Origin: Promethearchaeia archaeon
GTDB taxonomy: Archaea; Asgardarchaeota; Lokiarchaeia; Sigyniarchaeales; SOKP01
Direction of reading: 5' to 3'
NCBI GenBank assembly: GCA_029856145.1
Contig: JAHQWK010000019.1
Span: 1,927-65,926, forward strand
DNA length: 64,000 bases
Below are positions 54,066 to 57,296 of the stretch, one piece after another. Under the pieces are notes generated by a model. The model ran no database searches, was not told the DNA's origin, and saw nothing but the letters and a program-made list of their open reading frames with translations. Positions within the stretch are counted from its first letter, which is position 1. Every line of letters starts with the position of its first letter. Made by a program: the position numbers and the translations under genes.

Positions 54066-55742
54066 TTGTTTGATAAAAATTATTTGGAAGAAGTCAGAGA
54101 AGAAAAAGAAAAATGGGATAAACTCTATGAAAGTTTGAAAGAGCGCGATGTAAAATTTGTTTCTGATTCTGAAATCCCTATTAAAAACCTTTATACACCT
54201 TTAGATATAAAAGATAAAGATTATGTGAGTGATATCAGTTTTCCTGGAGTACCACCATATACGCGTGGTGTTTACCCCTCTATGTATAGAGGAAGATTAT
54301 GGACTATGCGATTATTTTCAGGTCATGGGACTCCTGAAGAAACTAATAAAAGATGGAAATTTCTCTATGAGAATGGTGAAACTGGGTTTAGTGCTGCGGT
54401 TGATGCTTTAACCTTTAATGGGATTGATCCGACTAACAAAGATGGAGCAGCAGAAGTAGGAACGTCTGGAGTTCCTCTCTATTGTATTGATAGTCTTTTT
54501 GCTCTGACTGAAGATATTCCGATCGATAAAATTAGCGTAGCTTTAGTAGTAGAACCTTTCACAACCGCTCCTGTGTGTTCTATGTATTTTAATATGGCGC
54601 AAATGCGGGGGTATGATTTAAAACAATTGATGGGAACAACTCAAAATGATATCTTAACTATGACGGTAGGATATATTCCATATAAAAATAGTCCTCCTAA
54701 CCATATACTTCGCTTAGCATGTGATTTCATTGAATGGACAGTAGCTATGAAAAATGTACCCAAATGGCATCCAATAAATTTCACAGGATATAATTATAGA
54801 GAAGGAGGAATTGATGCCGTACAGGAATTAGGTTTTGTATTTGCGAGTGCATGTTCTCATATTGATAATTTAATTGAAAGAGGATGGAAAGCGGATGATT
54901 TTGTTGGTCGTTTAGCATTTCACTTGTCGGCACATAAAGATTTTTTTGAAGAAATTGCAAAATTTAGAGCAGCAAGGAGAATTTGGTATAAATTAATGAA
55001 AGATAAGTATGAAGTCAAAGATCCAAGGAATCTGGGTTTTCGATTTCACGTTCAAACTGCAGGATCTTCTTTAACAGCACAATCACCTAAAGTAAATATT
55101 GTAAGAACAGCAATCCAAGCATTAGAAGCGAATTTAGGTGGCTGTCAATCATTACACACTAATTCTTATGATGAAGCTATTTGTTTACCCTCAGAAGAAG
55201 CAGTATTGATCGCCTTGAGAACCCAACAGGTGATCTCAGATGAAACTAAAATCCATAATACTATAGACCCTTTTGCTGGGTCCTATTTTATTGAATGGTT
55301 AACAGATGAAGTTGAAGATAGAGTATGGAAATATATAGATAAAATTCAAAAAGCAGGCACTATTGATAAGACTCTATCATCAGGATTCTTATATAAAGAA
55401 ATGAGAGATGCTTTTCATAAAAGAAGAATGCGTATGGAATCTGGCGATGAAATTATGTTAGGGGTTAATAAATATCCCGTGCCATATGATACGGTGACTG
55501 ATGTATTTAGAACTAATGAAGAAGCAATAAATATTGAAATTAGTCGAATTGAGAAATTAAAAGCTCGAAGAGATAATGCAAAATTAGAGAAAATTTTAGA
55601 TAAACTACGAAATGTTTGTGAAAAAGAAGAAAATGTAATGCCAATAATTATGGAAGCTACAAAAGAAGGAGCTACTGTTGGGGAAGTATGTAATATCTAT
55701 AGAGAAATATGGGGAACTTGGGATCCTCCATTAGCAATCTAA
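54066..55742 (+). CDS. B12-dependent acyl-CoA mutase, substrate-binding large subunit (MCM/ICM family, divergent specificity)
   Basis: PPYTRG, WTMRLFSG, GTTQNDIL, FFEEIAKFRAARR, FHVQTAG, QSLHTNSYDEA. Confidence 0.92.
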   Translation: MFDKNYLEEVREEKEKWDKLYESLKERDVKFVSDSEIPIKNLYTPLDIKDKDYVSDISFPGVPPYTRGVYPSMYRGRLWTMRLFSGHGTPEETNKRWKFLYENGETGFSAAVDALTFNGIDPTNKDGAAEVGTSGVPLYCIDSLFALTEDIPIDKISVALVVEPFTTAPVCSMYFNMAQMRGYDLKQLMGTTQNDILTMTVGYIPYKNSPPNHILRLACDFIEWTVAMKNVPKWHPINFTGYNYREGGIDAVQELGFVFASACSHIDNLIERGWKADDFVGRLAFHLSAHKDFFEEIAKFRAARRIWYKLMKDKYEVKDPRNLGFRFHVQTAGSSLTAQSPKVNIVRTAIQALEANLGGCQSLHTNSYDEAICLPSEEAVLIALRTQQVISDETKIHNTIDPFAGSYFIEWLTDEVEDRVWKYIDKIQKAGTIDKTLSSGFLYKEMRDAFHKRRMRMESGDEIMLGVNKYPVPYDTVTDVFRTNEEAINIEISRIEKLKARRDNAKLEKILDKLRNVCEKEENVMPIIMEATKEGATVGEVCNIYREIWGTWDPPLAI

Positions 55743-55759
55743 ATATTGAGGTGATAAAT

Positions 55760-56190
55760 ATGAGTGAGAAAAAAATTAGAGTTTTGATGTCCAAGCCCGG
55801 CATAGATTTATTCTAAACTTATTAGGATATAATGCATACGGGCATTGGCGTGGTGGAATCGTAGTTTCAAGAGCTATTAGGGATGCTGGGATGGAGCTTA
55901 TTTTCGGAGGATTTCAAAATGTAGAACAAATTGTTGAATCTGCAATTCAAGAAGACGTTGACGTTATAGGACTAAGTATTCATTCTGGTGCTCATTTTGC
56001 TTACACGCAGCAGGTTATTGATCTATTGAAAGAACGTGGAGTACTTGACGATGTTATGATACTTGTTGGCGGAATAGTTCCTGCAAAGGACTTTCCTAAA
56101 TTAAAAGAGATGGGGGTTGCAAACATCTATGGACCTGGAAGTATGACCTCAGATATCGTAGAGTTTATTAAAACACATGTCAAAAAATAA
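55760..56190 (+). CDS. Cobalamin-binding small subunit of the acyl-CoA mutase, join(55760..55805,55838..56190), 132 aa
   Basis: GAGGTGA SD then ATG 55760. Spliced product [52 protein letters not shown]..GPG. Confidence 0.85.
55806..55837 (+). other. 32-nt bulge-helix-bulge (BHB) mRNA intron (candidate)
   Basis: Exon helix GCCCG/CGGGC, 4-bp central helix GCAT/ATGC, 3-nt bulges AGA and ATA, internal hairpin TATTCTAA/TTAGGATA. Cleavage after the 2nd nt of each bulge gives ATA G|AC GGG CAT (I-D-G-H). Confidence 0.8.
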
Positions 56191-56205
56191 AGGAGATAAC
56201 TCGCA

Positions 56206-56248
56206 TCGGATATTGTCGATTTTATTAAACCTTATGTTAAAAAAATAA
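56206..56248 (+). repeat. Diverged duplicate of the 3' end of the B12-binding gene
   Basis: Encodes SDIVDFIKPYVKK versus SDIVEFIKTHVKK at 56149-56190. Confidence 0.7.
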
Positions 56249-56318
56249 AAAAGACATGTAATATTTTTTTTTTCAAATTATAATTTTACTTCAATTTCTC
56301 ATCGAGGAATGTATTTCA

Positions 56319-57296
56319 TTGAATATCGCATATAATATTGATACTTTAGTTAGTAAATTTAAACAAAAAAACAAAGTAGCGTTAGCAAAATTAATAACGA
56401 TTATTGAAAATGAGCCAGAAAGAGCACATGAGATATTTAAACATTTTGAAGGTATCTCTCATGATTCCTATATTATAGGTATAACAGGATCTCCTGGTGT
56501 TGGAAAGAGTACTTTAACTGGTGAAATATCTAAAAAATTATTAGAAGATGGAAAATCTGTTGGCATTATATGTGTCGATCCTACATCTCCTTTTAGTGGA
56601 GGTGCATTCTTAGGAGACAGGGTTCGTATGACAGATATATCACTGCATCCAAATATATTCTTACGAAGCCTCGCATCAAGAGGGTATAAAGGCGGAATTT
56701 CAAGAGCAGTTTTTGATATTAGTTTATTATATGAAGCATACGGAATGGATGTAATCATTATTGAGACTGTTGGCGTTGGACAAGCTGAATTCGACATTTA
56801 TAATCTTGCTTATTCTGTTGTAGTAGTTTTAGTTCCAGGATATGGTGATGCAATTCAAATGCAAAAAGCGGGGATAATTGAGATTGGAGATATATACAAT
56901 ATAAATAAAAAAGATTTAGGTGGAGAAGATATTGCCGTTCAAATTGAAATGATGCTTGATGATACTGTTTTTAAAAGTGGGTGGAGACCACCAGTTTCTA
57001 TGACTGATGCAATTTCAGGAGAAGGTGTAGAAGAACTTATCCAAAATATAAGGGATCATAAGGAACATATTGAATTATCAGAAGCAATTAATGACAAAAA
57101 GAAAAATAGATTCACATATAAGATCAAGGAACTTATTTATTCAAAGATTGAAAAACTAATTTCAGAGAGTTTCATTGATGAGAAAGAGATTAATGAAATT
57201 GTTAACCATGCGGTAGATGATGGTAAATTTAAAATTTATCGTACAATCCATAATAAATTCGAAGATGTGAATTTTGAAATAAAAAAGAAAAATTAA
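56319..57296 (+). CDS. meaB: MeaB/ArgK G3E GTPase chaperone of B12 mutases
   Basis: GITGSPGVGKST, VDPTSPFSGGA.LGDRVRM, RSLASRG, ETVGVGQ, NK.D. Confidence 0.93.
   Translation: MNIAYNIDTLVSKFKQKNKVALAKLITIIENEPERAHEIFKHFEGISHDSYIIGITGSPGVGKSTLTGEISKKLLEDGKSVGIICVDPTSPFSGGAFLGDRVRMTDISLHPNIFLRSLASRGYKGGISRAVFDISLLYEAYGMDVIIIETVGVGQAEFDIYNLAYSVVVVLVPGYGDAIQMQKAGIIEIGDIYNINKKDLGGEDIAVQIEMMLDDTVFKSGWRPPVSMTDAISGEGVEELIQNIRDHKEHIELSEAINDKKKNRFTYKIKELIYSKIEKLISESFIDEKEINEIVNHAVDDGKFKIYRTIHNKFEDVNFEIKKKN

Follow-up and report, generated by a model that had tools for sequence, protein, structure and literature searches.

Within the analysed window, a 64,000-nt stretch of archaeal DNA that occupies 1927-65926 of contig C19 in the host genome (G000), positions 54066-57296 carry three genes on the forward strand: the large (catalytic) subunit of methylmalonyl-CoA mutase (54066-55742; a 558-aa open reading frame, PF01642, E = 5.5e-163), the small (B12-binding) subunit directly downstream of it, and MeaB, the mutase-associated GTPase (56319-57296; PF03308, E = 2.3e-76). 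The identity of the small subunit is established by its domain matches (PF02310, E = 5.5e-17; TIGR00640, E = 4.3e-34, covering profile positions 14-129 of 132) and by its operon with the large subunit and MeaB, a gene order that is kept in relatives. The host genome consists of 32 contigs with 29.9% GC and an estimated contamination of 5.38%. Its named close relatives are all Promethearchaeota MAGs or MAGs with other Asgard labels, in agreement with the "probable Asgard archaeon" of a first-pass annotation made from the sequence alone; Promethearchaeota is a member of the kingdom Promethearchaeati. Just past the small-subunit stop, at 56196-56245, the gene's last ~13 codons recur in degenerate form; this repeat is absent in the aligned relative L038 and looks like a lineage-specific tail duplication.

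The small-subunit frame is interrupted. Translation from the ATG at 55760, which is preceded by a Shine-Dalgarno-like GAGGTGA (55748-55754) that also precedes the start in orthologs, would run for 18 codons and end at a TAA at 55814-55816, while the conserved continuation (GHWRGG) lies in another frame, from 55840, and extends over 116 codons to a stop at 56188-56190. The first ATG, GTG or TTG in this second frame is at 55891, so that a complete domain, or any product holding both the N-terminal strand and the histidine loop, requires the intervening DNA to be removed. In-silico removal of 32 nt (55806-55837, or alternatively 55807-55838, as A55806 equals A55838) yields a 399-nt frame of 132 codons, whose N-terminus is that of uninterrupted orthologs and in which DxHxxG, presumably the cobalt-ligand motif of the small subunit, is restored. 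Exon 1 (55760-55805) thereby comprises codons 1-15, whose 15 residues match the N-termini of the uninterrupted loci L037 and L038, and the first base of codon 16; exon 2 (55838-56190) supplies the last two bases of codon 16, the remaining 116 codons with the B12-binding domain, and the stop. In the DNA the motif is split within its Asp codon, which contributes base 1 to exon 1 and its remainder to exon 2; it becomes continuous only once the 32 nt are gone. The first-pass annotation had predicted this very restoration, and its coordinates for the gene, the stop, the helices and the bulges hold to the base. An intact small-subunit paralog (46% identical) resides elsewhere in the genome, on contig G000:C10, so loss of the interrupted copy might be tolerated.

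Unconstrained RNA folding of 55785-55853 returned a canonical bulge-helix-bulge (BHB) structure of the hBHBh' type at minimum free energy (MFE; -22.9 kcal/mol, z = -3.62, with none of 200 shuffles as stable), identical to the structure that the first-pass annotation had drawn. The outer, exon-exon helix h (5' strand 55791-55799, 3' strand 55839-55848) consists of five G-C pairs (55795-55799 with 55839-55843) and a 4-bp extension (55791-55794 with 55845-55848) past one bulged A, A55844. The central 4-bp helix H joins 55800-55803 on the exon side to 55832-55835 on the intron side and is flanked by two 3-nt bulges, 55804-55806 and 55836-55838, while the inner helix h' and its 5-nt loop occupy 55807-55831, with 1 bp, a T55808/T55830 mismatch and 8 bp (55809-55816 with 55822-55829; loop 55817-55821). 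Canonical BHBs are cut after the second base of each bulge; the predicted cuts fall at 55805/55806 on the 5' side and 55837/55838 on the 3' side. A GCATA repeat at 55800-04 and 55834-38 was considered as a target-site duplication and rejected, as the pre-insertion gene would then be 2 nt too short; the repeat arises because the central helix is palindromic.

The exon sequence itself is unusual in its capacity to form this helix. All five core positions are Watson-Crick G-C pairs in the window, a number that none of 72 unique same-length orthologs reaches; a single ortholog comes to four, and for most the count is one or two. The codons that build the exon helix are correspondingly rare: among 80 unique sequences, the host genome's own included, AAG occurs in 9, CCC in 7, GAC in 7 and GGG in 14. 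Characteristics of a self-splicing (group I/II) or homing-endonuclease intron were not found in the insert, which is 32 nt long and holds no open reading frame, and 55500-56300 gave no Rfam match at E <= 1.

How readily such a structure arises by chance depends on where it is sought. Across the genome, a pairing-only BHB pattern (outer helix of at least 5 pairs, central helix of 4, inner helix of at least 1) matched 109,274 times, or at ~1.1e-4 of all position and length pairs (2 x 3,554,888 positions x 139 lengths); a looser pattern gave 650,848 matches, from which these 109,274 are the ones with an outer helix of at least 5 pairs. A pattern match alone therefore means little in an AT-rich genome, but chance would seldom place one exactly where an insertion begins and ends. 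When the matches that had an outer helix of at least 4 pairs and enclosed 26-38 nt were ranked by BHB-constrained energy, the mutase site came third of 24,769. The sites at ranks 1, 2 and 7 are tRNA-Lys(CTT), tRNA-Ser(TGA) and tRNA-Thr(GGT); ARAGORN recognized each of them only once the sequence had been spliced in silico where predicted, which indicates that the scan recovers true endonuclease substrates of this organism. By BHB energy the mutase site is thus as good as the genome's tRNA introns, and its geometry is equal to that of the host's own tRNA T-arm introns. These ~30-nt BHB introns with T-arm-like flanks lie on the minus strand of contigs G000:C18 (76788-76818 and 76926-76956, reverse-complement offsets) and G000:C3 (118480-118510); two of the three genes carry a further intron, and since all three emerged only after in-silico splicing, the tRNA set (27 genes found) is under-called by standard tools.

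The first-pass annotation had also suggested that the insert might belong to a wider unannotated class. Screening the host genome produced no second convincing case: blastn-short searches with the intron and its flanks returned only 11-18-nt chance matches, and a strict screen for frame-restoring BHBs (inserts of at most 60 nt, BHB-constrained energy within 0.6 kcal/mol of the MFE) left 14 candidates, among which only the mutase site gave a protein-like product. This screen requires at least 30 open codons to either side of the insert, and relaxed motifs would escape it. A looser version was uninformative (38,571 candidates, compared with 37,530 in a shifted-junction control), and a helix-only pattern scan of genome contigs gave a single unrelated match in a Rhodobacterales MAG (L198), which we took as chance. 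The idea of a wider class is kept alive by a second, 30-nt insert in the same gene of other genomes, described below.

The insertion is present in independent DNA data. Contigs from two other studies carry it with 0 mismatches and 0 gaps, one spanning 55652-56269 (X3 record 9) and two covering 55194-55816 and 55788-55932 (X4 records 13 and 17). Among these data we saw no contig that skips the 32 nt; rare variants drop out of contigs, and an intronless allele is therefore possible. None of the sequencing runs listed as carrying this DNA is recorded as RNA. Two runs labelled as metatranscriptomic contain contigs from related organisms, one in X9 (12 differences, ending at 55782) and four in X20 (2-23 differences, none over 55700-55940); because none of them covers the intron, they are silent on splicing.

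Most relatives have the gene without the insert. It is absent from 29/29 congeneric loci (L005-L033; 83-97% protein identity), in which Lys-Pro-Gly-Ile-Asp-Gly-His-Trp is uninterrupted, and from 80/80 loci in species-representative (GTDB-representative) genomes, mostly titled Promethearchaeota or another Asgard name and some only "uncultured archaeon"; the two sets overlap, their 110 coding sequences comprising 81 unique ones. This absence from the representative loci fits a rare, possibly mildly deleterious element. The nearest ortholog has only 86.5% DNA identity but 97% protein identity. Thirteen base changes are specific to the window's lineage and all but one are protein-neutral, the exception being N87D; three of the 13 make up a Ser-to-Ser swap at codon 117. 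By this pattern of sequence change, the gene is under purifying selection along this branch. Two other irregular copies came up in the comparison. A match with an internal TAA (L117, G054:C291:1400-2500, minus strand) was rejected as an intron case: it comes from another genus and is a fragment of the gene, cut short at the N-terminal end, that lacks the N-terminal third and the upstream partner gene; L091 has a stop among its first codons, next to an A-run at the gene start, probably a homopolymer length error or a different start.

A metagenome survey of 80 loci extended the comparison. In 62 of them the gene was uninterrupted by pattern and in 5 uninterrupted with a variant motif, 10 were distant or partial, one (L129) held a different 30-nt insert, and two (L180 and L181) carried a 32-nt insert at the mutase-intron site. 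The latter inserts are homologous to the window's intron, with 8 of 69 aligned columns varying, while exon 2 of L180/L181 lies 0.81 substitutions per site from the window's (~72% protein identity). In an exon-2 tree (134 unique sequences of 174), L180 and L181 nest with L115, L116 and L179, all three intronless (supports 0.883 and 0.976), and the host genome's exon 2 pairs with the intronless L123. Both alleles fold at MFE as a BHB (-22.6 and -24.3 kcal/mol), more cleanly than the window's, and an A at position 55830 closes the mismatch there, giving a continuous 10-bp inner helix. Once the insert is removed, both have intact 132-codon frames.

Structure is conserved across these homologous introns, in three alleles and with no double compensatory change. 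Overall, 68/69 pair cells are paired in the three alleles, compared with 30-49% when partners are slid, and the exon-side strand of the central helix is invariant. Four of the five variable columns among the intron's 32 fall within the 8 unpaired ones, in the loop and in bulge 2, both of whose intron bases vary freely, and the fifth makes a pair (hypergeometric estimate, p ~0.009); in the exons, one column alternates between C and T opposite a G. Covariation is weak support on its own, because there are three alleles and no pair has changed on both sides in any of them. The annotation had held that relatives carrying the insertion with lost BHB geometry and a decayed gene would speak against an intron; L180 and L181, the only relatives with this insertion, show the opposite, keeping both the geometry and the gene.

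The flanks of the L180/L181 intron are mosaic. Relative to their intronless sisters L115/L116, these two loci are 95-100% identical upstream, beyond ~130 nt before the Gly-His codons, and everywhere downstream, and between these regions identity drops to 0.85, 0.57 and 0.69 in successive windows. In this low-identity tract, spacer, ribosome-binding site and start codon included, the sequence type is that of the host genome's clade; exon 1 of L180/L181 is 0.92 identical to the window's. Over 110 nt the foreign tract shares only 82% identity with the window, so the donor would be another, unsampled intron-bearing lineage. A chimeric assembly is argued against by the fact that L180 and L181 come from different records and are unlike each other. 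These sequence patterns suggest an intron old enough to have diverged, which homologous recombination carried from one lineage to another along with ~120 nt of upstream flank; we infer the direction of this transfer and its mechanism.

As a separate observation, the same gene has a different insert in other genomes. This insert, 30 nt long, in frame and containing a stop, follows Gly-His-Trp-Arg-Gly-Gly, six codons further downstream than the first site, in one species genome (L031, G032:C85, minus strand, equivalent to L054 620-649) and in the metagenome contig L129 (420-449). Its removal restores the 132-codon frame. It fits a relaxed BHB in which the bulges measure 3 nt, the central helix forms 3 of its 4 pairs and the exon-exon helix, of 7 bp, is distant; this fold comes within 0.7-1.8 kcal/mol of the MFE. 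Between the two alleles, one central-helix pair has changed on both sides, G-C to A-T, and other changes close two inner-helix mismatches. The 30-nt insert is possibly a second, independent intron of this gene.

Enzymes of the kind predicted to excise the 32-nt insert are encoded in the host genome. There are two paralogs of the splicing endonuclease EndA, of 198 and 205 residues and 32% identical, on contigs G000:C11 (L034 1177-1773, plus strand) and G000:C24 (L035 1423-2040, minus strand), both above the PF01974 and TIGR00324 cut-offs, and one RtcB (PF01139, E = 1.1e-170). On the model of the two-unit enzyme, one EndA paralog matches the C-terminal half and its partner the N-terminal half, a division that, read in the light of the literature, suggests a heteromeric enzyme with a catalytic and a structural subunit. 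Hetero-oligomeric endonucleases have been linked to a broad substrate range (PMC5829648).

Together, the fold, its rarity, its conservation, the restored frame, the enzyme genes and the independent DNA data sets argue that 55806-55837 is an hBHBh' intron in the small-subunit pre-mRNA, and the second family of BHB introns in archaeal protein genes after that of cbf5; we put the probability of this reading at about 85%. In the predicted course of events, exon 1 (55791-55803) would pair both with exon 2 (55839-55848) and with the intron's 3' end (55832-35), exposing two 3-nt bulges that flank a 4-bp helix; the host endonuclease, formed by the two EndA paralogs, would cut after the second base of each bulge, and RtcB would ligate the exons. 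The joined message would then carry the restored Asp codon, followed by Gly-His-Trp-Arg-Gly, and encode a 132-residue protein with the cobalt-ligating His, while an unspliced message would give only an 18-residue peptide. Because the intron begins only 46 nt behind the start codon, splicing would have to compete with ribosomes. The EndA/RtcB-type mRNA intron put forward in the first-pass annotation is, as a prediction from DNA, strongly supported by structure, genome-wide rank, comparative data and enzyme genes.

The same 32 nt could instead have inactivated the gene, leaving a young pseudogene or tolerated null allele whose BHB-like fold is fortuitous or a relic of the insertion, with the paralog on G000:C10 covering the function. 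The intact paralog and the rarity of the insert (0/80 representative loci) are what such an account would predict, but it would also require a BHB at the exact insertion boundaries, with a chance of ~1e-4, to have arisen with the stability of real tRNA introns. Moreover, a lineage at a distance of 0.81 substitutions per site has kept a homologous insert, its helices unbroken, along with a complete 132-codon frame, the lineage-specific changes in the window's gene are almost all synonymous, and the allele is identical in three studies, all of which make inactivation unlikely. An assembly or binning artefact, for which the 32-contig assembly and its 5.38% estimated contamination might be cited, is refuted by the other-study contigs that span the insert with 0 mismatches, as well as by related alleles in two further metagenome records, and we give it practically no credence.

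Two further alternatives accept that the structure acts on the message. EndA might cleave the BHB mainly for message control or decay, with partial or conditional splicing gating the supply of the B12 subunit. By analogy, the location of the structure within the first 90 nt of the coding region and the effect of a 5'-UTR BHB intron on HVO_1309 expression in Haloferax (PMC7714728, in the part available) could be read this way, yet an element that is patchily distributed and has spread laterally along with flanking DNA looks more like a passenger than like a conserved regulator, and 29 congeneric orthologs manage without the insert. We regard a primarily regulatory role as quite improbable, and the "regulatory switch" of the first-pass annotation, like its parallel to HAC1/XBP1, would be an analogy. 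Alternatively, the frame might be restored during translation, by ribosomal bypass of the ~32 nt or by frameshifting, with the RNA left unspliced; a stop codon and a hairpin after the interruption superficially resemble phage T4 gene 60, the case of ribosomal bypass. This candidate was rejected, as no pair of take-off and landing codons restores the conserved frame: a ribosome leaving at ATA 55802-04 and resuming at ATA 55836-38 would read the wrong frame, and for the Asp codon there is no landing codon that matches. Frameshifting would destroy conserved residues ahead of the His, and in L180/L181 the exon-2 frame has a stop inside the insert, so that frameshifting cannot rescue these alleles. 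Restoration in translation is accordingly very hard to credit, and we retain the spliced intron as the preferred reading.

In kind, the predicted mutase intron resembles that of cbf5 in Crenarchaeota (Watanabe et al. 2002; Yoshinari et al. 2006; Yokobori et al. 2009, PMC2738675), likewise a short BHB intron within a gene that codes for a protein. The cbf5 intron is removed by the tRNA-splicing endonuclease and a ligase, as is predicted for the mutase intron; its distribution is patchy, with gain and loss (available part of PMC2738675), as that of the mutase intron is also patchy; and it has been tied to a hetero-oligomeric endonuclease (Yoshinari 2006, in the part available), just as the host genome has two EndA paralogs. 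The differences are that the mutase gene encodes a metabolic B12-binding subunit and not an RNA-modifying enzyme, that the phylum is Promethearchaeota (Asgard), that the mutase intron has a recombinant flank indicating lateral spread, and that its splicing is predicted from DNA. The intron would work like that of cbf5 and falls outside the cbf5 family, because it lies outside that gene, a TruB-family pseudouridine synthase; the host genome's own cbf5 (L199/L200, G000:C18:13605-13946, minus strand) has no intron, being an open 337-codon frame without stops.

Other archaeal BHBs bear on the comparison as well. The 5'-UTR BHB of Haloferax volcanii HVO_1309 is, according to the available part of PMC7714728, an mRNA structure processed by the splicing endonuclease in vivo and in vitro; it sits in an untranslated leader, whereas the mutase intron interrupts the frame beside a catalytic-site residue. 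Archaeal tRNA introns, including many Asgard ones, have the same motif and the same predicted enzymes and have been gained repeatedly at BHB-capable sites (bioRxiv 10.64898/2026.10.13.758758, in the part available), differing in that the mutase intron's host RNA is an mRNA. In the available part of PMC7714728, the cbf5 coding-sequence case and the authors' own 5'-UTR case were stated in 2020 to be the only ones known in archaeal mRNA. The reference list of PMC12397907 cites only cbf5 papers for introns in protein genes, a 2026 review (PMC13149111) names only tRNA substrates for archaea, and the 2026 preprint on Asgard tRNA introns (bioRxiv 10.64898/2026.10.13.758758) does not contain the word "mRNA". 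In the texts searched, we came upon no BHB intron reported for a protein gene of an Asgard archaeon. The kind of intron is thus known, and what is new is the intron family, the host gene, the phylum and the signs of lateral mobility.

Outside the archaea, in eukaryotes, HAC1 and XBP1 mRNAs lose a short segment, with a change of reading frame, in a reaction that needs proteins only and no spliceosome; the nuclease is IRE1, and in animals ligation is of the RtcB type. The mutase case, as predicted, is alike in that removing a short mRNA segment changes the frame. It differs in that HAC1/XBP1 splicing relies on IRE1 acting on paired stem-loops and not on a BHB, and serves a regulated stress response; no homology is implied.

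If the mutase intron is confirmed, the tRNA-splicing machinery would be usable on messenger RNA well beyond cbf5, with a second, unrelated case in a metabolic gene of an Asgard archaeon. Standard pipelines call such genes truncated or pseudogenes; here the gene would appear as an 18-codon stub and a 99-codon fragment. The 69-nt RNA is a concrete and cheap substrate for Asgard EndA and RtcB, and the mosaic alleles offer a rare view of intron movement. More broadly, and at somewhat less than even odds, Asgard archaea may hold short, protein-spliced mRNA introns that are repeatedly gained and spread by recombination with flanking exon DNA, in a homing-like manner that needs no intron-encoded enzyme, two unrelated inserts having been found within seven codons of the mutase's cobalt-binding histidine. 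If true, the closest relatives of eukaryotes would show, in a living case, how reading frames came to be interrupted at first and to rely on an RNA-splicing machine.
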